Notes: generated by a model from the sequence alone, not told the origin. A stretch of 64,000 bases of DNA from GCF_056712565.1 NZ_CM160072.1, one strand, 5' to 3'. Positions 43,872 through 63,174 are shown, counted from the stretch's first letter. Translations and numbers: made by a program.

Positions 43872-46133
43872 ATGACAATTCTTAATCACACCCTCGGTTT
43901 CCCTCGCGTTGGCCTGCGTCGCGAGCTGAAAAAAGCGCAAGAGAGTTATTGGGCGGGGAACTCCACGCGTGAAGAACTGCTGGCGGTAGGGCGTGAATTG
44001 CGTGCTCGTCACTGGGATCAACAAAAGCAAGCGGGTATCGACCTGCTGCCGGTGGGCGATTTTGCCTGGTACGATCATGTACTGACCACCAGTCTGCTGC
44101 TGGGTAATGTTCCGCAACGTCATCAGAACAACGATGGTTCGGTAGATATCGACACCCTGTTCCGTATTGGTCGTGGACGTGCACCGACTGGCGAACCTGC
44201 GGCGGCAGCGGAAATGACCAAATGGTTTAACACCAACTATCACTACATGGTGCCGGAGTTCGTTAAAGGCCAACAGTTCAAACTGACCTGGACGCAGCTG
44301 CTGGAGGAAGTGGACGAGGCGCTGGCGCTGGGCCACAAGGTGAAACCTGTGCTGCTGGGGCCGATTACCTACCTGTGGCTGGGTAAAGTGAAAGGTGAAC
44401 AGTTTGATCGCCTGAGCCTGCTGAACGACATTCTGCCGGTTTATCAGCAAGTGCTGGCAGAACTGGCGAAACGCGGCATCGAGTGGGTACAGATTGATGA
44501 ACCCGCGTTGGTACTGGAACTGCCGCAGGCGTGGCTGAACGCATACAAACCCGCTTACGACGCGCTCCAGGGACAGGTGAAACTGCTGCTGACCACCTAT
44601 TTTGAAGGCGTAACGCCAAATCTCGACACGATTACTGCGCTGCCTGTTCAGGGTCTGCATGTCGATCTTGTACATGGTAAAGATGACGTTGCTGAACTGC
44701 ACAAGCGTCTGCCTTCTGACTGGCTGCTGTCTGCGGGTCTTATCAATGGTCGTAACGTCTGGCGCGCCGATCTTACCGAGAAATATGCGCAAATTAAGGA
44801 CATTGTCGGCAAACGCGATTTGTGGGTGGCATCTTCCTGCTCGTTGCTGCACAGCCCCATCGACCTGAGCGTGGAAACGCGTCTTGATGCAGAAGTGAAA
44901 AGCTGGTTTGCCTTCGCCCTGCAAAAATGTCATGAACTGGCATTGCTGCGCGATGCGCTAAACAGTGGTGATACGGCAGCTCTGGCAGAGTGGAGCGCTC
45001 CGATTCAGGCGCGTCGTCACTCTACTCGTGTACATAATCCGGCAGTAGAAAAGCGTCTGGCGGCGATCACCGCCCAGGACAGTCAGCGTGCGAATGTCTA
45101 TGAAGTGCGTGCTGAAGCCCAGCGTGCGCGTTTTAAACTGCCCGCATGGCCGACCACCACGATTGGTTCCTTCCCGCAAACCACGGAGATTCGTACCCTG
45201 CGTCTGGATTTTAAAAAGGGTAATCTCGACGCCAATAACTACCGCACGGGCATTGCGGAACATATCAAGCAGGCCATTGTTGAGCAGGAACGTTTGGGAC
45301 TGGATGTGCTGGTACATGGCGAGGCCGAGCGTAATGACATGGTGGAATACTTTGGCGAGCACCTCGACGGGTTTGTCTTTACGCAAAACGGTTGGGTACA
45401 GAGCTACGGTTCCCGCTGCGTGAAGCCACCGATTGTTATTGGTGACGTTAGTCGTCCGGCGCCGATTACCGTGGAGTGGGCAAAATATGCGCAATCCCTG
45501 ACTGATAAACCGGTGAAAGGGATGTTGACCGGCCCGGTGACTATTCTCTGCTGGTCGTTCCCGCGTGAAGATGTCAGCCGTGAAACCATCGCCAAACAAA
45601 TTGCGCTGGCGCTGCGTGATGAAGTCGCGGACCTGGAAGCCGCTGGAATTGGCATCATTCAGATTGACGAACCGGCATTGCGCGAAGGTTTACCACTGCG
45701 TCGCAGCGACTGGGATGCCTATCTCCAGTGGGGCGTGGAGGCTTTCCGTATCAACGCCGCCGTGGCGAAAGATGACACACAAATCCACACTCACATGTGT
45801 TACTGCGAGTTCAACGACATCATGGATTCGATTGCGGCGCTGGACGCAGACGTCATCACCATCGAAACCTCGCGTTCCGACATGGAGTTGCTGGAGTCGT
45901 TTGAAGAGTTTGATTATCCAAATGAAATCGGTCCTGGCGTCTATGACATTCACTCGCCAAACGTACCGAGCGTGGAATGGATTGAAGCCTTGCTGAAGAA
46001 AGCGGCAAAACGCATTCCGGCAGAGCGTCTGTGGGTCAACCCGGACTGTGGCCTGAAAACGCGCGGCTGGCCAGAAACCCGCGCGGCACTGGCGAACATG
46101 GTGCAGGCGGCGCAGAATTTGCGTCGGGGATGA
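43872..46133 (+). CDS. metE: cobalamin-independent methionine synthase
   Basis: 753 aa; [20 protein letters not shown]-terminus. Confidence 0.9.
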
Positions 46134-46172
46134 TGAGTATTAACGAGTCATTGTAAATTGCAGTACGATAAT

Positions 46173-46199
46173 GGCTTCCAGTACTGGAAGCCATTTTGC
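46173..46199 (+). terminator. probable metE terminator
   Basis: Perfect 20-nt palindrome ggcttccagtactggaagcc followed by attttgc. Confidence 0.5.
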
Positions 46200-46301
46200 A
46201 TGAGTGCCAGATTGAAGCAGATCTTCAGGAGTAGAAATAACCGAATCGTTTTTTTCGCAAAACACAGTTTTGAGTGATTCCGTTCAGTAATCAACGCTAC
46301 G

Positions 46302-46562
46302 TTATTTATTCTCACGTTGCACGAGATTGTATCCCTTTTCACTAACGTGGTAGTGAGGCATAGACTTATGCCCGCTATCCTCAATAATAACCAAACCTTC
46401 GTTAGCTAATTTGTTAACAATATTAACAACATTACCGAATCCTGGTATTTGCCTTATGGATAGTGTGCGATCGAGATTCATCCAGTTCCAGTTTATATCT
46501 TTCTCAGTCATAACGTTCAGCACGTTAAGTTCATTTTTAGTGATCACGATATTCTGTACCAA
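46302..46562 (-). CDS. small protein, candidate orphan immunity protein (paralog 2)
   Basis: 86 aa; high identity to the adjacent 85 aa protein by eye; AT-rich. Confidence 0.5.
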   Translation of the reverse strand: MVQNIVITKNELNVLNVMTEKDINWNWMNLDRTLSIRQIPGFGNVVNIVNKLANEGLVIIEDSGHKSMPHYHVSEKGYNLVQRENK

Positions 46563-46621
46563 AATTGATGAGTATCTTATTGAAAGATCACAATGTAAAT
46601 CATGCTCCTGTAATGGCTGGA

Positions 46622-46879
46622 TCAGAAGAGGTTGTCTTGTTGTTCTTTGATAAGATTCAATCCATATTGAGAAACTCTGTAGCGTGGTTTAGAGTTGCCC
46701 TCACCATTTACGATATCAACCAACCCATGATTAACCAGCTTTGTTACGATATTCGCTACGTTGCCAAATTCTGGAATATTTCGTATAGCTAAAGTACGAT
46801 CCAGCACCATCCAGCTCCAGTCAATATCTTTCTCAGCCATAACTTTCAGCACGTTAAATTCAACTATCGTAATCGTCAT
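46622..46879 (-). CDS. small protein, candidate cognate immunity protein (paralog 1)
   Basis: 85 aa; start overlaps the stop of the upstream toxin-domain ORF by 4 nt. Confidence 0.5.
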   Translation of the reverse strand: MTITIVEFNVLKVMAEKDIDWSWMVLDRTLAIRNIPEFGNVANIVTKLVNHGLVDIVNGEGNSKPRYRVSQYGLNLIKEQQDNLF

Positions 46880-48054
46880 TTTTTTGCATCCGGATGAAAT
46901 AAGTCAGTATCTTTAATTTTAAAGTCTTCTAGAGTTGCAGTATGTGCATTATTCCATAATTCATATCCATCTAAACCATTCGGTTCACCTGTTTCCCATC
47001 CTAAATTACAATAACGCTGATACTCGCGGCATTCATGAGTATAGTAGTTCAGATCGTATTTTTCAGGAAGCAATTCTTTATTTGCTATTTTTTTTAGCCT
47101 TGAAATCATTACATCATTAGCTGGATCATGATCAAATCTGGAGATATGCTTTTCAACAATAGCGATACCTTCCCTATTGATTGTTACGCCATCTATCGTC
47201 AGGTTTTCTATTGGACCACCGGCAAGGTCGGGATTAAATGGTCTTCCTGATACTGCTCCTCTGGCTCCGAAATGCTCAAATGATTCCAAATCAGGGAATC
47301 TCATTCTTCCCAGAACAACTCCAGCAACTATTGAAGCACCAGCGATGAGTAACCCTTTGTTATCCATAACTTGATCGTAACCAGCAGGTGCATCTCCTCC
47401 CAACTTGTTTGCTGTTTCCCTGAATCCTTCGATATTCCCATTGTATATGCCGCCAGCAGCAAGCAGTCTGCCAACCGCTTTACTATTGAGTGTTTTGAGG
47501 CCATTATTATCTTTAGTTTTTTGCCGTGGTATAAACAGACGGTTGTAGTTATCGGGAAATGCCAAATGACTAAATTCAGTATTAGCAATCAGATGCCTGG
47601 AGAGTATATATTCATAACTGACAGTGATGGTTTCTGTATCCAGATTGTTCTCAGTAAACAGGTGATTGATTGCTGATAAGAGCGCGCCGCGGAGTTGAAT
47701 GTTGTAATATTTCTCCTATCGACCAAATCTATTGATCCGATAGAAGTCAAACTCCATGAACAACTGCTCGTTATTGTTAATAGCGTTAATAAGTAACGGG
47801 GAGCTTTTGTCAATCAACTTACAGAAACTAAGGCCATGTAATTGTGACCCTTTGCCTGTATTCGTAATACTATTAGATAGCGAGAACGCGAAGATTTCAT
47901 CTTCATGGCCAATCTGCCAGCGATTACCTATTGATGCGCTCGTTCCGCAACGAGAGGAAATACATCCTTGTTGTTCTCCGGTTATGGTCAGGTAAATTTC
48001 ATCACTCATCTTTGATGAACTCTCTTTATTGCTTGATGTTTTAAAAATAAACAA
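46876..48054 (-). pseudogene. Hcp (T6SS tube protein) fused to a C-terminal extension domain, interrupted by in-frame TAG at 47716..47718
   Basis: N-terminal ORF matches Hcp (YLTITGEQQG..., LSFCKLIDKSSP); the frame continues past one TAG through the rest of the Hcp fold into the 229 aa domain; likely true start MSDEIYL at 48009. Confidence 0.6.
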
Positions 48055-48493
48055 TATTGCTATTTGTTTATAATTATTTACTCCTCAAGTTAATGGATTT
48101 AAATATGGGAAATAAAATGTTTCACTTTAGACCAGTTTTCATGAGGAAAATCTGTAATCATTAATAATAAACATGAATATTTTGCAGTGATTAATATTTG
48201 TTATGAATATAATCTATAACAATGAAGAGTTATCAGTTGTTCGGTGTATAGCCAGAGACGAGTTCAGTTTGTGATTTTTACAGGGCAGTTACAGCCGCAA
48301 AATTTTATGGCTGATTTCACCTTCCCCTCAAGCTTATCTTTCTTAAAAAGAGAAATAATTCTTAAATTCAAATAGTTATATACAATCTACTCTCTTTCTT
48401 GTGACTAGCTTCACATTTCATACTGATGCATTGGAATGAAATAAAATTTCATGAGATTTTGTGTTTGAGAAAAATTATTTCATTAGGTGTGAA

Positions 48494-49051
48494 ATGGACG
48501 CAAAGCTGTACATCACTGAGATCATCAATGAATTAACCTTCGTTAAGGACTCTATCCGTGAGGATGACTGCACCAAATTGATCGACGCTATTCAGCAAAG
48601 CCAGCGCGTTTTCTGCTATGGCCTGGGGCGTGCCGGCTTTTCCATGAAAGCCTTCACCATGCGCCTGATGCATATGGGCAAAGAGGTTTACTTCCTGACG
48701 GAAACCATTACGCCGAACTTTGGGCCTGGCGATCTGTTTATCGTTTCTTCCGCTTCCGGTGAGACAGCACAACTGGTGGCACTGGCGAAAAAAGCACGTC
48801 AGTTTGGCGGCGCTGTGGCGGTGTTAACCACGAATCGACACGCCACTATCACCGAGTTTGTCGACGTCATCGTGCAAATCAATGCCCCTTCCAAAAATCA
48901 AAAAGATTCTGTTTTCCGCTCGGCACAGCCGATGGCGTCGTTGTATGAGCAAGCTTTGCTGGTGATTGCCGATGCATTAGTGATGAAGATGGCTGCTGAA
49001 AGCGGTGCGCCGGAAAGTGAACTGTTTAAGCGCCACGCCAATCTGGAATAG
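48494..49051 (+). CDS. SIS-domain protein (6-phospho-3-hexuloisomerase-like sugar-phosphate isomerase)
   Basis: About 185 aa from ATG at 48494 preceded by AGGTG; SIS phosphosugar-binding pattern. Confidence 0.55.
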   Translation: MDAKLYITEIINELTFVKDSIREDDCTKLIDAIQQSQRVFCYGLGRAGFSMKAFTMRLMHMGKEVYFLTETITPNFGPGDLFIVSSASGETAQLVALAKKARQFGGAVAVLTTNRHATITEFVDVIVQINAPSKNQKDSVFRSAQPMASLYEQALLVIADALVMKMAAESGAPESELFKRHANLE

Positions 49052-49092
49052 TCGTCGCCGTTATTTGCTCGATACCCTACAGGAGAATAAAA

Positions 49093-50601
49093 ATGAGCAA
49101 AAAAATAACATCCTTGTTTAACTTCAAGAAGTTGCAGAAATTTTCTTCTGCTCTGATGTTACCAATCGCCATTCTTCCGGCGGCGGGTTTGATTTTAGCC
49201 ATCGGGATTTCATTTAACATTGAGCTGCTGGCGAATTGCGGCGGCCTGATTTTCGCCAACCTTCCTTTGCTGTTTTGTGTCGGTATTGTGATTGGCCTGA
49301 CAGGTGATGGTTCTTCATCACTTTCAGCGATTATCAGCTACATGATCATGAATGCCACGATGGGAACGCAACTTGGCATTACCGCGGAGTCCGTTGCAGC
49401 CAGTAACGGTGACTATGCGATGATCCTCGGGGTACCGACGTTACAAACGGGAGTGTTTGGCGGTTTGATTGTCGCCATCTTTGTTTATCTGCTCTATACC
49501 CGCTTCCACAATATTGAATTGCCTCAGTTTCTTGGTTTCTTCGGTGGAAAACGCTTTGTACCGATTATTACGGCGGTGGCGGCAATTATTGTCGGCTATT
49601 TATTGCCGTGGCTGTGGATACCGGTACAAAAAGGTCTGGCGTCGCTTTCAACGCTGGTGACCAGTGGGCATAACGCGAACTTCGCGGCCTTTATTTACGC
49701 CGTTGGCGAACGTTCGCTGATTCCTTTTGGCCTGCATCATATCTGGAACGTGCCGTTTTATTACAACTTTGGCGACTACATGACCAAATCCGGGCAACTG
49801 GTGACGGGCGATATTCCGGTGTTCTTTGCCCAATTGCGCGACGGTGTTCCGTTGACGGCGGGGTTGTTTATGACAGGTCGTTTCCCAATCATGATGTTTG
49901 CGTTACCTGCCGCCGCGTTGGCGATGTATCAGGAAGCAAAACCGGAACGTAAGGCGCTGATTAAAGGCCTTTTACTCTCCGGTGCGCTGACCACATTTGT
50001 TACCGGGATTACGGAGCCGCTGGAATATGCATTTTTGTTTGCAGCTCCGGTTCTCTACATCATTCACATCTTCTTATATGCCACTTCATTTGTGCTGATG
50101 AACATCCTGAATGTGCACATTGGTCATCCTTTTGCTGGCGGTCTTATTGATTTCGTACTGAATGGCGTTATGCCAAACCGCACGCCGTGGTATCTGGTGT
50201 TCCTGGCAGGCGCGGGCTATGCAGCGATTTACTACACCGTATTTCGGGTACTGATCCGCAAGTTGAATCTGAAAACACCGGGACGTGAGGATGAAGAGAT
50301 TGCCGTTGCAACCACATTAACGCGCGAAGAACGTCCATACCAAATCATCGAGGCAGTAGGTGGTTTCGACAATATCGAAGATGTGGATGCCTGCGCAACA
50401 CGCCTGAGGCTGGCGCTGGTAGACGATAAGAAAGTGAATGAAAAACGGCTGAAGGAGTTGGGGGCTGCGGGTTTAGTGAAACTGGGTGATGGCGGTGTAC
50501 AGGTGATATTTGGCGGCAAATCGCAAATCCTGCGCGACGAAATCAAAACCGTAATGAGCAGACCGCGCCCGACAGAAATGACAGTGGCCTGTGCTAACTA
50601 A
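49093..50601 (+). CDS. PTS glucose-family EIICB component
   Basis: 502 aa; polytopic EIIC followed by C-terminal EIIB with CATRLR phosphorylation motif; AGGAG 7 nt upstream. Confidence 0.75.
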   Translation: MSKKITSLFNFKKLQKFSSALMLPIAILPAAGLILAIGISFNIELLANCGGLIFANLPLLFCVGIVIGLTGDGSSSLSAIISYMIMNATMGTQLGITAESVAASNGDYAMILGVPTLQTGVFGGLIVAIFVYLLYTRFHNIELPQFLGFFGGKRFVPIITAVAAIIVGYLLPWLWIPVQKGLASLSTLVTSGHNANFAAFIYAVGERSLIPFGLHHIWNVPFYYNFGDYMTKSGQLVTGDIPVFFAQLRDGVPLTAGLFMTGRFPIMMFALPAAALAMYQEAKPERKALIKGLLLSGALTTFVTGITEPLEYAFLFAAPVLYIIHIFLYATSFVLMNILNVHIGHPFAGGLIDFVLNGVMPNRTPWYLVFLAGAGYAAIYYTVFRVLIRKLNLKTPGREDEEIAVATTLTREERPYQIIEAVGGFDNIEDVDACATRLRLALVDDKKVNEKRLKELGAAGLVKLGDGGVQVIFGGKSQILRDEIKTVMSRPRPTEMTVACAN

Positions 50602-50651
50602 TTCGAGATTAGCGGGCTGGTTTCAGCCCGCCAGACAGAGAGAGCTGAAGT

Positions 50652-52649
50652 ATGAATTCACAATTACTGGCTAACGCCATCCGAATGTTAAGTGTTGATG
50701 CGATCCAGAAAGCGAACTCCGGTCATCCGGGCGCGCCGATGGGGATGGCGGATATTGCCGAAGTGGTCTGGCGTCGTCACCTGCGTCATAACCCAAAAAA
50801 TCCGCAGTGGTTTAACCGCGACCGCTATATTCAGTCGAACGGGCACGGTTCCATGTTGATTTACGCTTTGCTGCATCTTACAGGCTACGACCTGTCGATG
50901 GATGATATTCGCGACTTTCGTCAGCTCCACTCCCGCACGCCAGGTCATCCAGAATATGGTTATACGCCGGGTGTTGAAACCACCACCGGCCCGTTGGGGC
51001 AGGGCGTAGCTAATGCGGTGGGGATGGCGATTGCGGAGAAGGCGCTGGCGGCAGAATTTAACAAACCGGGCTTTAATATTGTTGATCATCACACATGGCT
51101 ATTTTTGGGTGATGGCTGCCTGATGGAAGGGATCTCCCACGAGGCCTGTGGTCTTGCAGGAACGCTGAAGCTCGGCAATCTGATTGCTATCTGGGACGAT
51201 AACGGTATTTCGATCGATGGTCACGTAGAAGGCTGGTTTGCTGAAGATACGGCTGCCCGTTTTCGTGCCTACGGCTGGCATGTCATTGAAGGCGTTGATG
51301 GTCACGATCCAGAAGAGGTAGATGCTGCGGTGCGTGAAGCGAAAAGCGTCACGGATAAGCCCAGTCTGCTGTGCTGCAAAACGATTATCGGTTTTGGTTC
51401 GCCAAATAAAGCCAACAGCCACGATTGCCACGGCTCGGCGCTGGGTGCAGATGAAGTGGCGCTGGTGCGTGAACGTCTGCAATGGCCGTATGCCCCTTTC
51501 GAAATTCCTGGTGAAATTTATGCCGCATGGGATGCGACCGAGAAAGGCGCGCAGGTTCAACAGGAATGGGATGCACTGTTTGCTGACTACGCGAAGCAGT
51601 GGCCGGAACTGGCGGCGGAGTTTACTCGTCGCATGAAGGGTGATTTGCCTGCTGGCTGGGCCGAGAATATGCAGAAATATGTGCACGATCTGCAATCCCA
51701 TCCGGCGGCGCTGGCAACCCGTCAGGTCAGCCAGAAATGCCTCAATCACTTCGCGGATATGCTGCCGGAACTGATGGGCGGCTCGGCGGACTTGTCGCCC
51801 TCTAACCTGACTCGCCATCAGAAATCGGTTGATTTCACCGGGGAAAATCCGGCGGGGAATTACATCTCCTATGGCGTGCGTGAATTTGGTATGTCGGCCA
51901 TCATGAACGGTCTTGCGCTGCATGGTGGGTTTATCCCTTACGGCGGTACTTTCCTGATGTTTATGGAATATGCGCGTAATGCACTGCGCATGGCGGCGCT
52001 GATGAAGATCCGCTCGGTGTTTGTTTATACCCACGATACCATCGGCCTGGGCGAAGACGGCCCGACACATCAGCCCGTTGAGCAACTGGCGTCGCTGCGT
52101 CTGACGCCGAATATGGAAACCTGGCGCGGTTGCGATCAGGTGGAAGTGGCGGTAGCCTGGCAACAGGCGATTGAGCGCAAAGATGGCCCAACGTCGTTGG
52201 TATTAACGCGCCAACCTCTGGCGCAACAGCCGCGCACCGCTGCACAGTTGGCAGAGATTGCGCGTGGTGGTTATGTACTGAGTGATTGTGACGGTCAGCC
52301 TGAGATGATCCTCATTTCTGCGGGTTCAGAGATTGAGTTAGTGGTCAGCGCCGCAAAAGCGTTAACGGAAGAAGGGCGTAAAGTTCGCGTGGTTTCCATG
52401 CCGTGTACCGAGCGTTTCGATAATCAGGATGCGGCGTACAAAGAGTCGGTATTGCCAAAAGCTGTACGCAAACGTCTGGCGGTAGAAGCCAGCATCGCCG
52501 GATTCTGGGAACGCTACGTCGGCCTGGACGGTAAAGTGATCGGCATGACGAGCTTTGGTGAGTCTGCTCCGGCGAATGTGTTGTTCAAACACTTTGGTTT
52601 TACGCCGGAAAATGTCCTGGCGCAGGCGCGTGAGCTACTGAACAGCTAA
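50652..52649 (+). CDS. transketolase paralog
   Basis: 665 aa; collinear with TktA by eye ([29 protein letters not shown], ThDP-binding regions). Confidence 0.85.
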
Positions 52650-52678
52650 ACCTGCACAAGGGGTGAAAGGATGACCTT

Positions 52679-53524
52679 TTACCCCTTGAAACGGGAGCCA
52701 AGAAACTCTTCACGGGTGCGGTATTTCTCGTAATGCGCCTTGTTTTTATACATAAACAACAGCACCAGCATATCAATAACGCCCATTGCCGGAACGCGAG
52801 TGGAGTCGAAGGCTTCAAAGAAGATTTTATCGCTGACCGCGGTATTGAGTTGATGGGTGGAGAGTTTTGATAACGGAGATTTAATATAGTTAGTGATACA
52901 AACGGATTTGGCACCGCGCTCTTTCACCACTTTAAAGATATCGACCATTAAGTTGGTGCTGCCAGAGTTAGAAATACCAATCGCCAGGTCACGTTTCCCC
53001 ATAGAATATGCCGCATTAATTTGCATTTCCGGGCTGACGTGAACAACGGTTTTTAATCCGAGTTGGCTGAATTTATAAGCACCATAAACGGCCAGAGGGT
53101 TTGAATTTCCGGCAGCAAAAAAGAAAATAGTGTCGCAATTAGCAAGTAGTTTGAGAATGGACTCAAGCACTTCGGCATTAAAAAATTGCGTTGATTGTAT
53201 TAAATCTTCGGCCTGTTTTTTTAATAAAAATGTGGCCAGCGACGTTATATCGGTAAAATCGGTATTATCAGGATAGCTATTGTCAGGATTAATGACTTCT
53301 TTTGCTAATGCAATTTTTAAATGGTAATAACCCTGATAACCTAATTTCTTACAGGTGCGTACGATAGTCGCTTCACTGGCATGGCTTTTTTCTGATAGTT
53401 CAGTGACACTATAGTTCACGACTTCATGTGCGTGGCTAAGAATATAGTCAGCGACCTTTTTTTCCGCCTGATGCAGTGTAGGGTAATTGCTTTGAATCAG
53501 ACTTTTTACGGTTATGTTATTCAT
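52679..53524 (-). CDS. RpiR/MurR-family transcriptional regulator (HTH plus SIS domain)
   Basis: 281 aa; N-terminal HTH, C-terminal SIS; convergent with the PTS-SIS-transketolase genes. Confidence 0.7.
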   Translation of the reverse strand: MNNITVKSLIQSNYPTLHQAEKKVADYILSHAHEVVNYSVTELSEKSHASEATIVRTCKKLGYQGYYHLKIALAKEVINPDNSYPDNTDFTDITSLATFLLKKQAEDLIQSTQFFNAEVLESILKLLANCDTIFFFAAGNSNPLAVYGAYKFSQLGLKTVVHVSPEMQINAAYSMGKRDLAIGISNSGSTNLMVDIFKVVKERGAKSVCITNYIKSPLSKLSTHQLNTAVSDKIFFEAFDSTRVPAMGVIDMLVLLFMYKNKAHYEKYRTREEFLGSRFKG

Positions 53525-53724
53525 AATTAGTAAATTTCATTCTGACAGAAAGTGCTGATTATAACATAGTTTTCAGGCGTGGATAGGTGTGAAAAAAATG
53601 AAGGTGTGCAGTGAACGTAATGATTAACAGACCGGTTAATTTTCATGAATTACGTCAACTGCACAAAAATAATTTAAACGGGTGCTCTAATTAAAGCAAA
53701 ACTTATATTTTTATCATTGTATTG

Positions 53725-54630
53725 TCAATTAAATACAAATTGTGTCATTAATTGTGGGTTTCTTAAATATTCTATGCACCACTGACAGGCTTTGCCCATA
53801 CCATCGGAACGAGCGGCAAGAAATAACTTGGTGGCGTGTTTATGTTCGCGCATTGGCTTTTTAAGCAATTTACCGCTGTTCAATAACGGCAATGCCAGAT
53901 GATGTGGAATATAACCAATACCGACGTTTTGTTCTATTAAGGCGATTGCCGTAGCGAAGTCAGGAACAAAAATGGGTTTTTGTCCTTCCAACAACCAGGC
54001 TTGCATCGGGGGGAAGTTAACGGAGGTATCGCGGATACAAATCGCTGGATAGTGACGCAATTCACTGTTTTCTAATGGATGCCGCTTCGCTGCCAGTGGG
54101 TGGAGTGGGCTGACGACAAAATCCCATTCCATTTGTCCGACCGGTTCGCTAATGATGCCTTCACTGCTTGGTACTGCATGAGGAGCACCGTAGACCAGAT
54201 CAGCACGCTTACTGTACAGCGCATCCCAGCAGCCGTTGTATACCTCAAGATCTACCGTCAGTGTTGTTGATGTGAATTGCCGTTCAAAATCTCGAATAAA
54301 TGCCACCAGCAAATCACCAGGAATAATATTGTTCACCGCAATTGTCAGTTCACGCTCAATACCATCGTGAATCAGCACTGTGTTGCGCTTTAATGCTTCC
54401 AGGTCGCCAAGAATAGTTTTGCTATGTTCGATGAAGTAACTTCCCGCTGGCGATAATTCAATATAGCGTCCCTTACGAATGAACAGTTCAACGCCCAGGC
54501 TCTCTTCCGCTTTCTTGATGGTGTAACTGATGGCGGAAGGGACTTTATTTAACTGCTCGGCTGCGGTGGTAATGCTCTGGTGTCTGGCGACCAGATGAAT
54601 AACACGAAGCGTTTCGTCTGAGATGAACAT
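53725..54630 (-). CDS. LysR-family transcriptional regulator
   Basis: 301 aa; N-terminal LysR-type HTH. Confidence 0.75.
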   Translation of the reverse strand: MFISDETLRVIHLVARHQSITTAAEQLNKVPSAISYTIKKAEESLGVELFIRKGRYIELSPAGSYFIEHSKTILGDLEALKRNTVLIHDGIERELTIAVNNIIPGDLLVAFIRDFERQFTSTTLTVDLEVYNGCWDALYSKRADLVYGAPHAVPSSEGIISEPVGQMEWDFVVSPLHPLAAKRHPLENSELRHYPAICIRDTSVNFPPMQAWLLEGQKPIFVPDFATAIALIEQNVGIGYIPHHLALPLLNSGKLLKKPMREHKHATKLFLAARSDGMGKACQWCIEYLRNPQLMTQFVFN

Positions 54631-54707
54631 AAGGCTCCCTGGTCAGTGGTAAAGTGGCTGAATCTCTCCAGATTCAGCCGTAATCATTGCCTGAGTATAC
54701 CCAGGAA

Positions 54708-55931
54708 TTAGCGGTGTTGACTTGCCCGACTGAGAATCGCATACGCGATACATGCCACCAGAATCGAGTCTACCGAAGGGATCGTCGTCAGGGTGAATAA
54801 GCCTTTTACGGTCATAAAGCCAACCGCTGCGCCTATGATCCATGCTGCGAATGTCAGCACTTTAATCTGTGACTCCTGGGCTAACACTGACTCTTGATAG
54901 CCATTACGGCGATAAAGGAAAAAGTCAGCGATATAAATTCCGGCAACGGGTGGCGTGGCGATACCCAGGAACAGCAGAAACGGAATAAACCACGCCATAA
55001 TATCCATACTGCCTACGATGGCGGAAAGGATACCCAGCGCCACGGTAATCTGCCATTTGGGAAAGCGGGTAAGCAGTGTGGAAACCACCAGCGTGCCCTG
55101 GAACATATTGCCCGCGTTACCGGTGACGCAGGCGAAAATCAACAACAGCGCCGCAGGCAGAACCGCACCGAATACCGCCATCGCACCCAGTAAAGATCCC
55201 TGACCACTAATGGCGCTCGGCGTTGCACCCGCCCAGTAGAGCAGAGGGTAGGCAACCAGAAACGTCACGCCTGCGGCAATCAGCGCATGTTTGCGGTTAT
55301 GCACAAAACTACCGAAATCAGGCAGTGTGGCAACCAGCACAATAATGGTGCCAACAACGGTGGAAACGGCGACACCTGTATTCATCTCCACAATCGCCGC
55401 TGGTACTGCCACTTCGGTATGGGTTGCCACATAGAGGATGTAACACAGCACCAGCGCGATAACCGGCACGGCAACCTGGGCAATTTTTCCCAGAACGGCA
55501 AAGCCAAATGCCGTAGAGGCGACAAAAATGACACAGCCAGCCGCCACTAACAGTGCCAGTGGAACTTCCAGTCCATGTTGAGCCAGTAAGTCATGTACCG
55601 AATGACCAAACATATTGGCGGTAACGGCAATCCAGCCGAACAGACTTATCGCCATCAAAATGTTAATGGCGATGGCCCCTTTTTCGCCAAACGAATATTT
55701 CACAATGCCATACGTTGGCAGGCGGGCTTTTTCTCCCACGCTAATGGTGATGGCTGAAAGTAAGGTCAGAATGACGCCGCCTAACAATACGACGCTAATT
55801 AAACTGCCGCTGGAAAGTTGATTGCCGAGGCTTGAGGATGACAACAGCACAGGTGTGACGGCAATACCCAGCAAAATCATGGCAATACGCAATCCTGATG
55901 CCGTATTCAGATTCTCTTCTTTTTTACGCAT
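54708..55931 (-). CDS. NCS1-family nucleobase permease (CodB-like)
   Basis: 407 aa, about 12 TM; resembles cytosine permease CodB around GIYIADFFLYRRNG. Confidence 0.65.
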   Translation of the reverse strand: MRKKEENLNTASGLRIAMILLGIAVTPVLLSSSSLGNQLSSGSLISVVLLGGVILTLLSAITISVGEKARLPTYGIVKYSFGEKGAIAINILMAISLFGWIAVTANMFGHSVHDLLAQHGLEVPLALLVAAGCVIFVASTAFGFAVLGKIAQVAVPVIALVLCYILYVATHTEVAVPAAIVEMNTGVAVSTVVGTIIVLVATLPDFGSFVHNRKHALIAAGVTFLVAYPLLYWAGATPSAISGQGSLLGAMAVFGAVLPAALLLIFACVTGNAGNMFQGTLVVSTLLTRFPKWQITVALGILSAIVGSMDIMAWFIPFLLFLGIATPPVAGIYIADFFLYRRNGYQESVLAQESQIKVLTFAAWIIGAAVGFMTVKGLFTLTTIPSVDSILVACIAYAILSRASQHR

Positions 55932-55956
55932 AGTATGTTCCCTTTATAAATGCGCG

Positions 55957-56346
55957 TTACACAGTATGAAAATGCCCGGTGTATTTGCGCCAGCTACCCA
56001 GTTCTGTAATTTCCCGTTGGCCTTCGGTCAGCCAGTTTTCTGCCAGTACGCCCAGCACTTCGCTACCATCGGCAAGTTTGATTTTGCCAATTGCCAGCCC
56101 AGCGGGTTCGCTCATTAACAGAGCGGCAAAACTGGCCAGCGGTAATTGCCAAATTTCTACGTCGACGTGTGTTCCTCCTTCATTCACGCGAATCATTCCC
56201 GGATGGCGATCATTAATACTCCACAACCGGTAATGGGCGTCAGTTCGGTCTTCACGGACAAAAATACCGCCCGCTTTTTGCATATTTGGGTTGAGTTCCA
56301 GGCCGCGCATCAGCGTTCCGTTAACGGCTAAAAGCGTTGTAGTCAT
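55957..56346 (-). CDS. gamma-glutamylcyclotransferase-like (AIG2 / allophanate hydrolase C-terminal domain-like) protein
   Basis: 129 aa; LAVNGTLMRG N-terminal motif typical of GGCT-fold proteins. Confidence 0.5.
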   Translation of the reverse strand: MTTTLLAVNGTLMRGLELNPNMQKAGGIFVREDRTDAHYRLWSINDRHPGMIRVNEGGTHVDVEIWQLPLASFAALLMSEPAGLAIGKIKLADGSEVLGVLAENWLTEGQREITELGSWRKYTGHFHTV

Positions 56347-56362
56347 TGTGTTCTCCAGAGAA

Positions 56363-57319
56363 TTAAAGGGTTATCCATGTACCGCTCTGATGCGCCAGGG
56401 CTGCTTTTATGGTTTGCGGTGAAGTAATCAGGCCGCTGGCCTGTTTGCCTTGTTGCTGGCTGGCATTGATGAAATCAACAATGGCTTCCACTTTGGGTTG
56501 CATACTGCCGACACCAAACTGACCTTCCCGCAACAGCGTTTGCGCTTCGGCAACGCTGATAGCGTCGAGCCACTGTTGTTGTGGTGTACCAAAGTTAATC
56601 GCTACTTTTTCTACACCGGTGGGGATCACCAGCAGATCTGCGCCTAACTGACTGGCGAGCAGCGCGGAGGCCAGATCTTTATCGATCACGGCTTCTACAC
56701 CTTTCAGTTGTTGCCCGTCTCGCACCACCGGAATACCGCCGCCGCCGCAGGCAATAACCAGATATCCCTGGCGCACCAGGTGAGCGATGGTGTCGTGCTC
56801 AATAATTTCCAGTGGTGCAGGAGAGGGAACTGTACGCCGCCAACCACGCCCGGCGTCCTCCATCAGCGTCCAGCCGAGTTGTTGTTGGCGTTGTTGGGCC
56901 GTTGCTTCATCGAGAAACGCGCCAATTGGTTTACTGGGGCTGGCGAAAGCATCGTCATGTGGGCTGACTCGCGTTTGTGTCACCAGGGCAATTACCGGTT
57001 TGTTTATGCCACGGCGAGCCAATTCGTTATGCAGCGCTTTCTGGAACATGTAGCCAATTGCACCTTGTGTATCACCCACGGCGTAATCAAGTGGAACCGG
57101 AGAAACTTCGTTACTGGCGAGTTCAGAGCGGCGCAGAATAAAGCCCACCTGCGGGCCATTACCGTGGGTTAGTACCAGGTCCCATCCGGCTTCAACCATA
57201 TCAACGATATGTTGCACGCTTTCCATCACTGCAACATATTGATCGGGAATACTATTGCGTTGCTCGTCCTGAATGAGCGCATTGCCGCCAACCGCGACGA
57301 CAGCCAGTGGCTTAACCAT
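56363..57319 (-). CDS. carbamate kinase
   Basis: Start at MVKPLAVVAVGGNAL (318 aa), overlapping the upstream stop; carbamate kinase family pattern. Confidence 0.75.
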   Translation of the reverse strand: MVKPLAVVAVGGNALIQDEQRNSIPDQYVAVMESVQHIVDMVEAGWDLVLTHGNGPQVGFILRRSELASNEVSPVPLDYAVGDTQGAIGYMFQKALHNELARRGINKPVIALVTQTRVSPHDDAFASPSKPIGAFLDEATAQQRQQQLGWTLMEDAGRGWRRTVPSPAPLEIIEHDTIAHLVRQGYLVIACGGGGIPVVRDGQQLKGVEAVIDKDLASALLASQLGADLLVIPTGVEKVAINFGTPQQQWLDAISVAEAQTLLREGQFGVGSMQPKVEAIVDFINASQQQGKQASGLITSPQTIKAALAHQSGTWITL

Positions 57320-58736
57320 GATGGTTCTCCTTTGCGACGATCTCCGCCAGTGCACGTACAGCGGCGACAAAACAGGCCATCGGCGCAGTGGTGATCCCGG
57401 CACCAATTTGCCCGACCCCCGCTTGTTTGTGGGCGATACCCGTATTGATGACCGGTAAAATGCCGCGATCGGTCACTTTACGCGCATCAATTCCTGCTGC
57501 GGTGGGGGCAAAATTGAGGGCTGGAAGTGTAAATGCGGGGTTACCGCCGAGGGTGATGGCTTGCATCCGACGGCTGTTATTGGTGGCATCGGCAGGGGTG
57601 CCTCCCACAAATTTGACGATCGCCGGAGACGACGCCATCGCGAAGCCACCCATACCTGCGGTTTCAGTAATTGCGCTATCACCCAGGTCAGCAGCAGCGT
57701 CGTCAACGCCAAATCCGGGGAAGAACAGACCTTCAACGGCATTGGCAGGAGCCTGGAACCAGCGATCGCTAGTACCGGAAAGCCGAATACCAAAACTCAC
57801 CCCGTTACGCGCCATCACCGTAACCATTGAACTGAACGGTACATTGGCGGCGGCATCCATCATTGCTTTACAGGCGGCCATCGACAGATTGAGGAAGAAG
57901 TGATCGTTACCGGTGATAAATGCCACGACGCGCTGGATATGTTCCTGTGGAAGAGAGCAGGCCAGCAATGCCGGGAGCAGGCGCTTAATCAGCAAACCGG
58001 TAGCGGCAGCATTGCGGTTATGAACTTCATCCCCCATATGCAGCGCCTGCGCCATTAATGGCTTGAGTTCCAGCTCGCCGTGTTGTGCGATTGCTGCTTT
58101 CATTGCCGGCGCCAGTTCATCGCGCATCCAGGCCAGACGATTGAGAACTTCATCGTTATTGGCGCCAAAACGGAGAACCTTACCCAGACCTTCATTGAAA
58201 TTGCTAAAAGTACGATGGCCGTTGGTTTTGTTTTCTACCACCCATAACGGCATCGACGGGCTGATGATGCCTGCCATTGGGCCAACCGCGTGATAATGAT
58301 GACAAGGGGCAAGGTCGATTTCGCCTGCGTTTATTTGGTTTTCAGCGTCTTGCTGGCTGGTGGCCCAACCTTCGTACAGCATGGCACCAATAATCGCCCC
58401 TTTTACCGGACCACACATCTCTTCCCAGGCAATCGGCGGGCCAGAGTGCAAAATACGTTTTTGTTCAGCCATTGCTGGAATGGCCTCTTTAGCGAGCATG
58501 ACATCCACCAGCATGGGCTGTGCTTCGAGATAACGTGTCATGGCGATTTGGTTGGCATTTTCTACCAGGGGATGACGTAGCAACGATGCCAGATCCAATC
58601 CAGCGTCAATATCGCCTTGTGCTGGTGGCTGCCAGTTGAGTGCAATTGCGCTTCCCCCGGCATGTTGAATATTGTCAGCAAAACTGTGTAGTCCCGCGTT
58701 CACAACCTTCAAAGGCTGATTAAATAAGGTATTCAT
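57312..58736 (-). CDS. DUF1116-family protein (YlbE-like)
   Basis: 474 aa; start immediately follows the FdrA-like stop; assignment mainly from size and operon context. Confidence 0.5.
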   Translation of the reverse strand: MNTLFNQPLKVVNAGLHSFADNIQHAGGSAIALNWQPPAQGDIDAGLDLASLLRHPLVENANQIAMTRYLEAQPMLVDVMLAKEAIPAMAEQKRILHSGPPIAWEEMCGPVKGAIIGAMLYEGWATSQQDAENQINAGEIDLAPCHHYHAVGPMAGIISPSMPLWVVENKTNGHRTFSNFNEGLGKVLRFGANNDEVLNRLAWMRDELAPAMKAAIAQHGELELKPLMAQALHMGDEVHNRNAAATGLLIKRLLPALLACSLPQEHIQRVVAFITGNDHFFLNLSMAACKAMMDAAANVPFSSMVTVMARNGVSFGIRLSGTSDRWFQAPANAVEGLFFPGFGVDDAAADLGDSAITETAGMGGFAMASSPAIVKFVGGTPADATNNSRRMQAITLGGNPAFTLPALNFAPTAAGIDARKVTDRGILPVINTGIAHKQAGVGQIGAGITTAPMACFVAAVRALAEIVAKENHHG

Positions 58737-60292
58737 GCGTTTAGCCCCTTTTTCTGCAACTGAGTCTGTGCAACGGTGCTGGCCCATAGCGCCGCCTGTG
58801 CATTGCTGCTGGCGATGATGACCCCTGCATTTTGTAGTGCTCTTATCTGCTGACTGCGTATTTGCGGATCAGCTTCCGTTCCGCAAACGTGCGCAATCAG
58901 CAACGGTGCGTTATTCATGTCGATGTGTGAAAGTTGGTCCAGTAATTCGCTGGCAGGCGCCGTGGAAGCGCCATAACCAAGTACCAGGTCGAATAACACG
59001 ACGGCAGTGTGTGAGTCGTTGAGTTCGTTGAGCAGACGTTGATTGCGCAGAGTCGGGTCGATCATTGGATGCGGTTTGCCACGGGTGAAATCATCGTCGC
59101 CCATATCGATCAACGTGTGATCTTCGCTTTGCCAGATATTTGCCAGAGCACGATTACCCGCAACTGGCGTATTGGAAGCTGCGCTGAATCCCTTTTGTTG
59201 GCAGATAAGTTGCGCTTCGTAGCAGAAGGTTCCTCCGGCGAAAACACCGCGTATCGCCTGGCGATGGGCTGGCAGGCGCTGACAGGCGTTTTGTAACATT
59301 GTGAGATCGGCGCAGGAAATCTCGGTCTCGACAGCCGGAAGTGGCTGAGCATTCAGTAACGCTACGGCGATATTTGCGGCGCTGGCAAGTGTGGTGGCCG
59401 CGGTGATATTGGGACGTGCCAGATCATGCGGATTCGCACCGAGGAAATTCACCACCACGGGTTTTCCACAAGCCTCGGCGCGCTCCAGAATAGTCTGGGC
59501 AACGATCGGTGAAGGCGGTTTTGAAATCAGCACAATCACGCGAGTTTCATCGTCTTGCGCCAGCGCATCTAAAGCGAAGAGCATCGATATTCCACCAATC
59601 TCTTCACTGAGATCATGCCCACCGGTTCCCAACGCCTGAGAAATACCCGCTCCGAGCTGGTCGATTCGGCAAGTCACTTCCTGTAGCCCGGTGCCTGACG
59701 CGCCAATAACACCAATTGCTCCGCGTTTCACCACATTAGCGAAGCCTAACGGAATGCCGTTAACAATGGCGGTTCCACAGTCAGGTCCCATTACGATGCG
59801 CTGACGTTCTCGGGCAAGCGTTTTGATAGATTTTTCCTGCCCGATACTGACGTTATCGCTGAACATCATCACGTTCATTCCGAGGTTTAACGCTTTAATT
59901 GCTTCGGCGGCGGCGTAGTCTCCCGGTACAGAAATGAGTGCCAGGTTGGCTTCGGGTTCGGCTTCCAGTGCCATTTCCAGGCTGACCTTTTCCGGTGTTT
60001 TAATGCCACTATCCGTTTCATCATCGGGTTTGCTGGTCAGACGTTGCTGGGCCAGTACCAGTGCTTCATTGCAAATATCTTCTTCACCCATGACTGCAAT
60101 CACTAAATCATTGGGACTGGCGTTGATTTCGTTACCCAGACCCGCATCGCGCAATTGTTCGAGATTATTGGGCGTTCCCATGACGACCGAGGCCTGTTGA
60201 ATACCGGGCAACTTGCTGATTTGCGCGGAAATCTGCATCAGAGAAACTGAGTCCTGATAAAGATTACTGAAAACTTTATATTTAACTTTCAT
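58733..60292 (-). CDS. FdrA-family protein (succinyl-CoA synthetase alpha-like fold)
   Basis: 519 aa; blocks YQDSVSLM, MMFSDNV, MGPDCGT, GVIGASGTG, PHPMIDPTLRNQ match E. coli FdrA. Confidence 0.75.
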   Translation of the reverse strand: MKVKYKVFSNLYQDSVSLMQISAQISKLPGIQQASVVMGTPNNLEQLRDAGLGNEINASPNDLVIAVMGEEDICNEALVLAQQRLTSKPDDETDSGIKTPEKVSLEMALEAEPEANLALISVPGDYAAAEAIKALNLGMNVMMFSDNVSIGQEKSIKTLARERQRIVMGPDCGTAIVNGIPLGFANVVKRGAIGVIGASGTGLQEVTCRIDQLGAGISQALGTGGHDLSEEIGGISMLFALDALAQDDETRVIVLISKPPSPIVAQTILERAEACGKPVVVNFLGANPHDLARPNITAATTLASAANIAVALLNAQPLPAVETEISCADLTMLQNACQRLPAHRQAIRGVFAGGTFCYEAQLICQQKGFSAASNTPVAGNRALANIWQSEDHTLIDMGDDDFTRGKPHPMIDPTLRNQRLLNELNDSHTAVVLFDLVLGYGASTAPASELLDQLSHIDMNNAPLLIAHVCGTEADPQIRSQQIRALQNAGVIIASSNAQAALWASTVAQTQLQKKGLNA

Positions 60293-60386
60293 GCTGTTAC
60301 GCCTGTTTCATTCCGCCCGATAGCAAAATTCGGGCAAAGCATCCCCGTGTAGCCCCATAAACGGGCTACGGGAGAAAAGGTTGAAA

Positions 60387-61247
60387 TCAATTCATGGTGT
60401 TCAGGGTTCGAAAGCCATGCAGCATTCCTGCAAGGCAATCTACTCCTGACGTTGCGCCAAATTGCATGACCTGTTCTGCACAGGATGCGATTGTCATTGC
60501 CGATGCGCTCCCAACCAGTTGTGCGAGTAACTGGCAAATCGGTTCTGAAAAATGTCCCTGAAGCGCACGCTCCAGATAATGACGACTGATATCCGTGGTG
60601 TTGTGCGCATGTTGATCAATTGCCTGCTGCAACCGGTATTGATGATCGGCAAGTGGTGCAGGGAGTTGCCATAACCAGAGCGCTGCCAGATAGCCCAACA
60701 AATAGTCATCTCCATCGGGCGTTAAGCCTTTACCAAAGCCGATCAGTTGTGGCACCTGGCGTTCCAGCGCATCTGGATGCTCCATAATTGCTAATCCCTG
60801 GTGCGTGAGACTATCCGGCAGGTGCAATGTGCTTTGAACGTTATGTTCCAGACAAAATAAAAGCCGTTGCGATGCCATCGTTGGGTAGTGCTGGAAAACC
60901 AAAGGGAATGCCTCAAGTGTCAGCATTCTCCCCACAAATGGCGACTGCCAGAGCGTTGCGTTTTCGAGCGCCACACAAAATCGAGGTGTCCGCAGTAAGC
61001 CTTGGGTTAACTGAATGGGATCTGAATGGGCAATCTCTCTTCGCCAGTCCCAACATTCAGGTAGCCAGACTCTGGCAGCATCAGGGAGATTCAGATACGT
61101 TTGCGCACACAACAGAGTGATGAATGTTCCCGCGTCTGAATACAGATTTACCGCATGTTTAAAAGCGCTATGTAGACGTAAATCTTGCGTTTCATTCTGC
61201 GGGAAAAGATATCCCAACGACGATGCGCAAAGCGTAACCTGTACCAT
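60387..61247 (-). CDS. hypothetical protein, possibly DUF2877 (YlbF-like)
   Basis: 286 aa; assignment inferred from position beside FdrA-like and DUF1116-like genes, not from a recognised motif. Confidence 0.4.
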   Translation of the reverse strand: MVQVTLCASSLGYLFPQNETQDLRLHSAFKHAVNLYSDAGTFITLLCAQTYLNLPDAARVWLPECWDWRREIAHSDPIQLTQGLLRTPRFCVALENATLWQSPFVGRMLTLEAFPLVFQHYPTMASQRLLFCLEHNVQSTLHLPDSLTHQGLAIMEHPDALERQVPQLIGFGKGLTPDGDDYLLGYLAALWLWQLPAPLADHQYRLQQAIDQHAHNTTDISRHYLERALQGHFSEPICQLLAQLVGSASAMTIASCAEQVMQFGATSGVDCLAGMLHGFRTLNTMN

Positions 61248-61252
61248 CGGCG

Positions 61253-61921
61253 TTAGCCTTCCAGACCTGCAATAATGGCTTTGGAATCAGTAACCCAACC
61301 GAAAATGGCACCTTGTGCTTTGATCATCTCGAGGGCGTATTTCTGGAATTCCGGGAAATAGGAGCCGACACAATCTTCCGGGATAATGCATTCATAGCCA
61401 CGATCATTTGCTTCGCGCACGGTGGTGGTTACGCAAACTTCGGTTGTTACACCACAAACTATCAGCGTCTTGATACCGTGGTTTTGCAAAATCAGATGTA
61501 AGTCGGTTTGATAAAACGCGCCTTTGCCAGGCTTATCAATCACCGGTTCGCCTGCCACCGGGTACAGTTCAGGAATGATGTCATGACCTGCTTCACCTCT
61601 GACCAGAATGCGTCCCATCGGTCCTGGTTCACCAATAAAGGTTTTTCCGCCGCGCGTCAGTTTGGCTGGCGGGCAGTCGCTTAAGTCTGCACGATGGCCT
61701 TCACGAGTATGAATAACCATAATTCCTTTTTGACGTGCGGCTGCCAGCACCTCTGTACATGGTGCGATAGCCGTGCGTACCAGTGAAACATCATTGCCCA
61801 GAGCCTCACCGAAGCCCCCTGCTTCGACAAAGTCACGCTGCATGTCGATCATGACCAGTGCAGTTGTGCGCGGATCAAAAGGTAATTCAAAGGGTTGAGC
61901 CTGAAAAATGGATTGCGTCAT
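61253..61921 (-). CDS. isochorismatase-family cysteine hydrolase (RutB/biuret hydrolase-like amidohydrolase)
   Basis: 222 aa; VMIDMQRDF start and VCGVTTEVCV catalytic-Cys region typical of the family; first gene of the operon. Confidence 0.7.
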   Translation of the reverse strand: MTQSIFQAQPFELPFDPRTTALVMIDMQRDFVEAGGFGEALGNDVSLVRTAIAPCTEVLAAARQKGIMVIHTREGHRADLSDCPPAKLTRGGKTFIGEPGPMGRILVRGEAGHDIIPELYPVAGEPVIDKPGKGAFYQTDLHLILQNHGIKTLIVCGVTTEVCVTTTVREANDRGYECIIPEDCVGSYFPEFQKYALEMIKAQGAIFGWVTDSKAIIAGLEG

Positions 61922-62177
61922 GGTAAATCTCCTGTCTGATGTTTAAACGATCCAGTTGTTCTGAGAACGAGTATTCAGGAGAAAAGCGACACAAAACAGG
62001 AAAAAAGTTTGCCGCACAGCAACGAAATTTTTGCATTCAGCAGGTGGTGTGATGACGAATGTGAAGGGAGTCAAAGAGTGGCATACAGCAACAAATTTTT
62101 TGATGCTGTATGGTTTTGAGATTAAAAAAATCGTTGAAATTGTGTGAGCTTAATCATCAGATTTAGCGACTATGGCG

Positions 62178-62987: not shown

Positions 62988-63107
62988 GGTATTCTCCGTA
63001 CCCTTATAAAAATGTTGCGCAATGTTAACTATAGTCAGCATGCAACAAATCACATTGCCTGAATCGGCTCATCTTTTATGCAGTCCTGCAGAATGAAGAG
63101 TGATTTA

Positions 63108-63174
63108 TGTGATTTGCATCACTTTTGATGGGTAAATTTATGCAACACATTTTCGTCATGGTGATGAGTATCAC
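63108..63174. promoter_or_regulatory. udp promoter region with two CRP sites (CytR/CRP-type architecture)
   Basis: TGTGAtttgcaTCACT at 63108..63123 and gGTGAtgagtaTCACg at 63159..63174, centres about 51 bp apart. Confidence 0.6.

Follow-up and report, generated by a model that had tools for sequence, protein, structure and literature searches.

A four-gene SIS-PTS-transketolase unit with an RpiR regulator in the tkt1 genomic island of Escherichia coli: a candidate sugar-catabolic operon

The locus within the tkt1 genomic island

This analysis concerns a four-gene locus at 48494..53524 in a 64,000-nt window of Escherichia coli DNA (GCF_056712565.1 NZ_CM160072.1; the window is the whole stretch that was analysed, and all positions are counted from its first nucleotide). 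Three co-directional genes encode an HxlB-like sugar-phosphate isomerase, a glucose-family transporter of the phosphotransferase system (PTS) and the transketolase Tkt1, and a fourth, convergent gene encodes a regulator of the RpiR family. This arrangement, with a ribosome-binding site before each of the three co-directional genes, had been proposed in a preliminary description made from the sequence. It held up well: the open reading frames (ORFs) are intact, the ribosome-binding sites read AGGTG, AGGAG and a weaker GAGAG, and the three proteins score above the NCBIfam cut-offs. The convergent regulator, with helix-turn-helix (HTH) and SIS domains, was likewise found as described, with full-length matches to NCBIfam models at the family level. 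The genes and the island that carries them are as follows.

46130..62179, no strand: the tkt1 genomic island, 16.05 kb between metE and ysgA (K-12 blastn, ATCC 11775 annotation and PMC3349570)
48494..49051, plus strand: hxlB-like gene for a single-SIS-domain sugar-phosphate isomerase of 185 amino acids (TIGR03127, 1M3S alignment)
49093..50601, plus strand: gene for a Glc-family PTS EIICB of 502 amino acids with no EIIA domain (TIGR02002, PtsG comparison)
50652..52649, plus strand: tkt1, encoding a full-length transketolase of 665 amino acids, the third paralog (TIGR00232, residue check, published primers)
52679..53524, minus strand: gene for an RpiR/MurR-family regulator of 281 amino acids with HTH_6 and SIS domains (NCBIfam family-level matches)

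The suggestion that these genes lie in an accessory island was borne out by blastn against K-12, in which homology stops at 46129, the end of metE, and restarts at 62180, at ysgA, leaving an insert of 16.05 kb. Of 5426 complete E. coli genomes, 1134 (21%) carry the locus, at 95-100% identity. It is 100% identical to that of ATCC 11775; other carriers include Nissle 1917 and the avian pathogenic E. coli (APEC) strain BEN5202. In strain AVS0747 (NZ_CP124467.1) the match stops after the first 80% of the query, that is hxlB, EIICB and most of tkt, and a gene of the isocitrate/isopropylmalate-dehydrogenase family is annotated at the break point, which suggests that the island is rearranged or truncated in some strains.

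What the preliminary description overlooked is that the locus had already been published and named: it is the left half of the tkt1 genomic island of Li et al. (2012, BMC Microbiol 12:51, PMC3349570). That island was reported as 16 kb with 15 ORFs at the metE/ysgA site, enriched in APEC, uropathogenic (UPEC) and neonatal meningitis (NMEC) E. coli of phylogroup B2, and its ORF list includes a putative sugar isomerase, a PTS IIBC, tkt1, two regulators, a permease, a carbamate kinase and yahEFG-like genes (PMC3349570). The locus, insertion site, size and ORF list are the same here, with no sequence difference, and the annotated gene order agrees with Table 2 of that paper. Furthermore, its primers tkt1-F/R, tkt1E-F/R, tkt1C-F/R, both deletion arms and the left-junction pair piaL-F/R all match the window exactly; for the right-junction pair piaR-F/R no site in the window matches exactly, which may reflect allelic differences. 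Li et al. treated tkt1 alone, and the isomerase-PTS-tkt1-RpiR unit, its orthologs in other phyla and the transporter binding site were not analysed there. A search of the literature for the function of the module, by names, locus tags, protein accessions and enzymes, returned nothing beyond the 2012 study and a 2026 comparative-genomics paper that describes tkt1 solely through the 2012 results. In the same literature no description was found of the cross-phylum conservation of the SIS, EIICB and RpiR proteins that is set out below.

Conservation of the gene products and of candidate control sites

All four genes have evolved under strong purifying selection. When the window allele was compared with a 98.9% identical E. 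coli allele, omega (the ratio of dN to dS) was 0.064 for hxlB, 0.027 for EIICB, 0.092 for tkt1 and 0.106 for rpiR. A further comparison used L002 (CACSKA010000003.1), an enterobacterial-type copy of uncertain species in which the four genes keep the E. coli arrangement within an unrelated neighbourhood; here dN was 0.07-0.14 and dS was saturated. By this measure all four are kept as working genes. The L002 record is a 555-kb contig deposited as Chryseobacterium sp. 18061, with 50.6% GC over the fetched stretch, enterobacterial-type genes and a PTS protein 90% identical to that of the island, and it is probably mislabelled or derived from a contaminant or co-culture partner. The nearest named homologs of its SIS protein, in Klebsiella, are only 86% identical, and the copy is therefore not assigned to that genus.

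The first gene of the operon starts at an ATG preceded by AGGTG 4 nt upstream; the GTG at 48461, further upstream, is an unlikely start codon because every ortholog is 185 amino acids long. Its product scores 204.9 bits against the HxlB model TIGR03127 (cut-off 160), and residues 5-185 align with 6-186 of Bacillus subtilis YckF/HxlB (PDB 1M3S; E = 9e-39). The protein is thus a full-length homolog of the isomerase that acts with HxlA in the ribulose monophosphate (RuMP) detoxification of formaldehyde, and it passes the equivalog cut-off. Unlike the B. subtilis enzyme, the E. coli SIS protein has no HxlA partner; the genes linked to it encode a PTS transporter, a transketolase and an RpiR regulator instead. 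No gene of the OMPdecase/HPS (3-hexulose-6-phosphate synthase) family was found in the island or beside the orthologs L002, L015, L016, L018, L019, L021, L024, L025 and L026; the sole OMPdecase-family gene among ten ortholog contexts, on contig L027, is paired with a different SIS paralog. The true substrate of the SIS protein may be something other than D-arabino-3-hexulose-6-phosphate.

The second gene, with AGGAG 7 nt upstream, encodes a protein that scores 608.6 bits against the glucose-type IIBC model TIGR02002 (cut-off 591.8). It is 44% identical to E. coli K-12 PtsG and conserves the IIC-IIB order, the GITE motif and the EIIB cysteine. Orthologs were found in Serratia (84% identity), Sebaldella (70%) and Rhodococcus (62%, an EIICBA). 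Glucose contacts in PtsG have been defined by structures (8QSR and others; PMC11393339), in which K257 and S338 touch OH-2/OH-3. The island protein and its orthologs in four phyla keep PtsG residues E202, R203, H211, H212, N215, T297, E298 and F337 and the EIIB cysteine, and they uniformly carry K257M, S338A and Q219Y (Q219 being the gate), so that the set of glucose contacts is incomplete. The likeness to PtsG in domain order and in most contacts thus breaks down at the gate and on the OH-2/OH-3 side. Conservation of these three changes in four phyla argues for a sugar other than that of PtsG, and the position of K257 and S338 suggests that the substrate is probably a pyranose that resembles glucose around C4-C6 and differs on the C2/C3 face.

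The third gene, tkt1, has only a weak GAGAG 7 nt upstream. Its product scores 1008.4 bits against the transketolase model TIGR00232 (cut-off 682.25) and is 68.6% identical to TktA and 65.4% identical to TktB, a pair that shares 75.5% identity. Every E. coli genome has two tkt1-like places, tktA and tktB, at 60-80% nucleotide identity, and the tkt1 carriers have a third, as expected from the earlier suggestion of a transketolase beyond the usual two. Comparison with TktA and TktB had been put forward as a check. In a small distance tree, Tkt1 and three other SIS-linked full-length transketolases group outside the TktA/TktB pair, which, together with its being a third copy, rules out that Tkt1 is an ordinary ortholog of either. 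The 22 catalytic, thiamine diphosphate (ThDP), Mg and phosphate- or substrate-binding residues that were checked are all identical to those of TktA; they include H26, H66, H100, D155, N185, I187, H261, R358, S385, E411, H461, D469, H473, R520 and others in TktA numbering, a list drawn from TktA structures. Tkt1 has the same full-length ThDP transketolase fold as its paralogs and looks catalytically complete. The four-member Tkt1 group also shares 23 signature substitutions, several of which (A383S, S463T, S519T, N522P) adjoin phosphate-binding residues, and these clade-specific changes could reflect a shifted substrate preference.

The regulator gives full-length, family-level matches to the HexR, AlsR and MurR models of NCBIfam, all below the equivalog cut-offs, so that it is none of HexR, MurR, AlsR or RpiR proper. 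Pfam HTH_6 and SIS domains are recorded for its orthologs, and it is 42% identical to the module regulator of Sebaldella and 46% to that of Enterococcus. The SIS protein, EIICB and RpiR form an orthologous core across phyla (Serratia, Sebaldella, Rhodococcus, Enterococcus). The contexts in which this core, or part of it, was found outside E. coli, around SIS homologs of increasing distance, are listed here.

Serratia ficaria: RpiR, MOFRL kinase-like, α/β-hydrolase, AP_endonuc_2, Gfo/Idh/MocA, SgrR-like, SIS and EIICB genes, with no tkt
Two metagenomic contigs: tkt-SIS beside ROK kinases, a sugar ATP-binding cassette (ABC) transporter, a hydrolase and AP_endonuc_2
Glutamicibacter and Rhodococcus: SIS-PTS-(HPr-EI)-Gfo-AP_endonuc_2-hydrolase in one operon
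Enterococcus: aldo-keto reductase (AKR)-SIS-TktN-TktC-PTS-RpiR
Sebaldella: SIS-TktN-TktC-EIICB-RpiR
Enterocloster: ABC-PfkB-iron-dependent alcohol dehydrogenase (FeADH)-ROK-SIS-aldolase-TktN-TktC
Contig L027: SIS-TktN-TktC adjoining a related EIICBA

The partners of the core are thus either a transketolase or a trio of Gfo/Idh/MocA, AP_endonuc_2 and α/β-hydrolase proteins. Tkt1 shares only about 27% identity with the split transketolases found in the Gram-positive-type modules, so that a transketolase was recruited to the core at least twice, which argues that the pathway really uses transketolase activity. As for the trio, it recurs beside the SIS/PTS core in Proteobacteria and Actinobacteria (L002, 12776..16890; L015, 1801..5872; L021, 9782..12530; L026, 11830..14558), and the enterobacterial copies add a MOFRL glycerate-kinase-like gene. 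None of the trio or accessory enzymes of the related clusters reached an NCBIfam equivalog cut-off; the trio shows weak similarities to glycoside or levoglucosan 3-dehydrogenases and to enol-lactonases.

Around the four genes lie several elements that could control their expression.

48393..48493, plus strand: conserved putative promoter/leader segment of the hxlB-EIICB-tkt1 operon (homology to strain 4/1-1 restarts at 48393; aligns with L002 and Serratia)
48437..48451, no strand: candidate operator 1, the perfect palindrome TGAAATAAAATTTCA (TGAAAT-N3-ATTTCA), from footprinting against L002 and Serratia
48468..48482, no strand: candidate operator 2, AGAAAAATTATTTCA, directly adjoining the hxlB ribosome-binding site (two mismatches to the palindrome)
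50612..50631, plus strand: small GC hairpin with an 8-bp stem and no T-tract in the EIICB-tkt1 gap (folding free energy, dG, about -17 to -18 kcal/mol, z = -2.1)
52657..52688, no strand: hairpin where tkt1 and rpiR converge, its stem of 14 bp and its loop of 4 nt (folding)
53525..53724, minus strand: rpiR upstream region with the extended -10-like TGTTATAAT, the reverse complement of 53558..53566 (E. coli/L002 conservation)

The leader is kept even in strains that lack the upstream Hcp segment. Strain 4/1-1, for example, is without the Hcp-toxin segment at 46130..48392 and retains the four genes with about 100 bp upstream. Within the leader, TGAAATAAAATTTCA is the sole zero-mismatch match to the palindrome in the 64-kb window; L002 conserves its half-sites, and Serratia has related ATTTCATGAAAT repeats. 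The core of the second box, AAWTTATTTCAT, is identical in E. coli, L002 and Serratia. The two boxes are candidate RpiR operators, placed as would be expected for repression. Upstream of rpiR, TGTTATAAT is found in both E. coli and L002, where little else of the spacer is conserved, and may be a promoter element. A search of the leader and intergenic regions against Rfam gave no match at E <= 0.1, and a consensus scan for canonical terminators and promoters found none at the expected positions.

The preliminary description had placed the stop codon of the regulator inside a long hairpin shared with the 3' end of the transketolase gene. The hairpin is real: the folding energy is -29 kcal/mol on the plus strand (z = -6.5, with 0 of 200 shuffles as stable) and -23.6 on the minus strand, and the rpiR stop (reverse complement of 52679..52681) lies inside its 3' arm. 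The tkt stop at 52647..52649 is instead outside it, 7 nt before the stem. Since there is no T-tract, this is not a canonical intrinsic terminator on the plus strand. L002 has at the same position a non-homologous, longer stem with A- and T-tracts, again with the rpiR stop inside, and the recurrence of a different stem in the same place suggests that the hairpin architecture is functional rather than accidental; it is probably a bidirectional 3'-end element. The small hairpin between EIICB and tkt1 keeps its stem, CGGGCTG/CAGCCCG, in L002 despite diverged flanks, and may have a role in mRNA processing or stability.

A candidate sugar pathway and competing explanations

The reading favoured here, with a confidence slightly better than even, is that the unit is an accessory catabolic operon under RpiR control, for a glucose-like sugar other than glucose, feeding the pentose phosphate pathway. 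The preliminary description had likewise suggested a dedicated route from an unusual PTS-imported sugar phosphate into that pathway. This is still the best reading, and the recurrence of the SIS-PTS-RpiR core with a transketolase in other phyla supports it; the route itself is one that we infer. The same logic, a pathway-specific transketolase and isomerase within a sugar cluster, is familiar from the apulose-4-phosphate transketolase of D-apiose utilization and from the sulfo-transketolase (sulfo-TK) pathway for sulfoquinovose, where the transketolases are split N/C enzymes acting on non-PTS substrates.

The proposed pathway begins with EIICB, which would import the sugar and phosphorylate its exocyclic hydroxyl. 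Because no EIIA is encoded in the island, the phosphate would probably come from the housekeeping EIIA-Glc (Crr). The HxlB-type isomerase would then move the carbonyl of the sugar phosphate (3-ulose or aldose to 2-ulose), and Tkt1 would pass carbon to the pentose phosphate pathway, either by direct cleavage of the ketose phosphate or by providing extra transketolase flux. The SIS domain of RpiR would sense a phosphosugar intermediate, and the protein would probably repress the operon through the TGAAAT-N3-ATTTCA palindrome and the second box, which overlaps the hxlB ribosome-binding site. The convergent tkt1 and rpiR transcripts would end at their shared hairpin.

On chemical reasoning, the candidate substrates that would be looked at first are hexoses modified at C2/C3 (2-keto, 3-keto and anhydro sugars, among them 1,5-anhydro sugars) and heptoses or heptuloses. 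The modified hexoses suit the chemistry of a 2-ulose/3-ulose isomerase; the heptoses and heptuloses are attractive because their phosphates leave central metabolism only via transketolase or transaldolase. A broader proposal, offered more tentatively and at somewhat less than even probability, is that the SIS-EIICB-RpiR core is the signature of an uncharacterised cross-phylum sugar pathway with two interchangeable downstream versions, one using transketolase and the other the dehydrogenase/AP_endonuc_2/hydrolase trio, and that its substrate is a C2/C3-modified glucose-like compound or a heptose.

If this broader proposal is correct, B2 E. coli would gain a host- or diet-derived sugar that is closed to K-12-type strains, and this would help to explain the link of the island to extraintestinal fitness. 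A tkt1 transposon mutant was attenuated in chickens, in which it was out-competed (PMC3349570). The island is among the markers most strongly associated with B2 extraintestinal pathogenic E. coli (ExPEC). Knowing the sugar would account for a fitness island that many strains carry and would also give a function to a module of enterobacteria, Fusobacteriota, Firmicutes and Actinobacteria.

Several observations weigh against a catabolic operon of this kind. The substrate screen of a deletion mutant that had been recommended earlier was already in print, and like the complementation test below it decides neither for nor against the proposal: the tkt1 mutant showed no carbon-source difference (PM1-2) when Biolog plates PM1-8 were used, and only Pro-Ala and Phe-Ala differed, as nitrogen sources (PMC3349570). 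This could be due to masking by TktA and TktB, or to a substrate that is not on the plates. Arabinose-induced pBAD-tkt1 also failed to restore growth of a K-12 tktA mutant on arabinose, in what was a growth test only (PMC3349570). A cloning artefact behind this failed complementation was ruled out, as neither NcoI nor XbaI cuts within tkt1 and the primers fall at the correct places. A sigma-70 consensus scan of the plus strand of the leader upstream of hxlB called no site. Moreover, the need for a dedicated transketolase is not evident if the product of the SIS enzyme is simply fructose-6-phosphate, and in Serratia, Rhodococcus and Glutamicibacter the core comes with the enzyme trio instead of a transketolase. 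No match to the dehydrogenase/TIM-barrel/hydrolase/kinase operon was found in the 5426 E. coli genomes, and the E. coli pathway could therefore be incomplete.

The last of these points leads to the strongest rival, which is nonetheless unlikely. Here the E. coli unit would be only the transport step and tail end of a larger pathway that needs the trio, together with the glycerate-kinase-like protein, and it would handle only an intermediate that other microbes have processed and released, or would contribute little. The trio adjoins the SIS/PTS genes in L002, Serratia, Glutamicibacter and Rhodococcus, and its absence from every E. coli genome and the lack of a carbon-source phenotype in the tkt1 mutant (PMC3349570) fit this explanation as well. 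However, Sebaldella and Enterococcus have a minimal SIS-Tkt-PTS-RpiR set with no trio, which appears to be self-sufficient, and both the strong purifying selection on the four E. coli genes and the intact state of the unit in 1134 genomes argue against a fragment.

A second rival, rather improbable, is that the unit relieves phosphosugar stress: a toxic, non-metabolisable glucose look-alike (for example a 1-deoxy or 2-modified glucose) would be imported, and its dead-end phosphate ester would be drained by the isomerase and transketolase. An SgrR-like regulator (240 bits to SgrR, below the cut-off) stands directly upstream of the SIS-PTS pair in Serratia, PtsG binds 1-deoxyglucose and methyl-glucoside well (PMC11393339), and the binding-site changes in EIICB fall on the OH-2/OH-3 side. 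E. coli lacks the SgrR-like gene, however, and it is difficult to see why a toxin should have a high-affinity importer of its own. Detoxification and catabolism are not separated at the level of sequence.

Still less probable is the conclusion of Li et al. (2012), that Tkt1 is no working transketolase and acts in dipeptide nitrogen metabolism. The defect of the tkt1 mutant on Pro-Ala and Phe-Ala as nitrogen sources was complemented, and tkt1 did not complement the tktA mutant (PMC3349570); the verdict that Tkt1 is no transketolase was drawn from the failed growth complementation alone. Against it stand the 68.6% identity of Tkt1 to TktA, the conservation of all of the checked residues, the score of 1008 bits on an equivalog model and the position of tkt1 within a sugar PTS operon of which other phyla have versions that likewise include transketolases. 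Furthermore, we know of no biochemical link between transketolase and dipeptide use.

Very improbable, finally, is a RuMP-type fixation or detoxification of formaldehyde as in B. subtilis hxlAB, for although the SIS protein exceeds the HxlB equivalog cut-off and aligns fully with B. subtilis HxlB, and transketolase belongs to the regeneration branch of the RuMP cycle, this reading fails for want of a hexulose-phosphate synthase partner in the island and in nine of ten ortholog contexts (the OMPdecase-family gene of L027 going with the other SIS paralog), and formaldehyde gives no reason for a PTS transporter or a phosphosugar-sensing RpiR.

Neighbouring genes of the island and window

The left end of the island is occupied by an orphan type VI secretion islet at 46302..48054 on the minus strand. 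Its Hcp/TssD gene, which encodes a C-terminal extension, is broken by an internal stop into ORFs at 47716..48054 and 46876..47565; the ATCC 11775 annotation treats it as a pseudogene. It is followed by two small paralogous ORFs, at 46622..46879 and 46302..46562, that have the look of immunity genes.

The right half of the island, 53725..61921 on the minus strand, is a separate co-directional cluster that is not linked to the sugar unit in other species. It encodes a LysR regulator (PunR/AllS-like, below the cut-off), an NCS1 cytosine-permease-like transporter, a small allophanate-hydrolase-related protein, carbamate kinase, DUF1116, FdrA and DUF2877 proteins and a cysteine hydrolase. Its resemblance to the yahEFG-yahI and fdrA-ylbEF-arcC sets of K-12 suggests catabolism of a nitrogen-rich heterocycle or ureide.

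Two further features lie outside the island. In the rarD-corA gap, GC content falls sharply over 32582..33924 (to 31% in the 33-34 kb bin); the equivalent segment of ATCC 11775 carries genes for a YPO3983-family protein and a DUF943 protein, and this is probably another small accessory islet. Where udp directly joins rmuC in K-12, ATCC 11775 has, after udp, an islet for a TctABC-type tripartite tricarboxylate transporter. It matches the 5-kb islet in Li et al. (2012), and at most its edge could fall inside the window (62180..64000).

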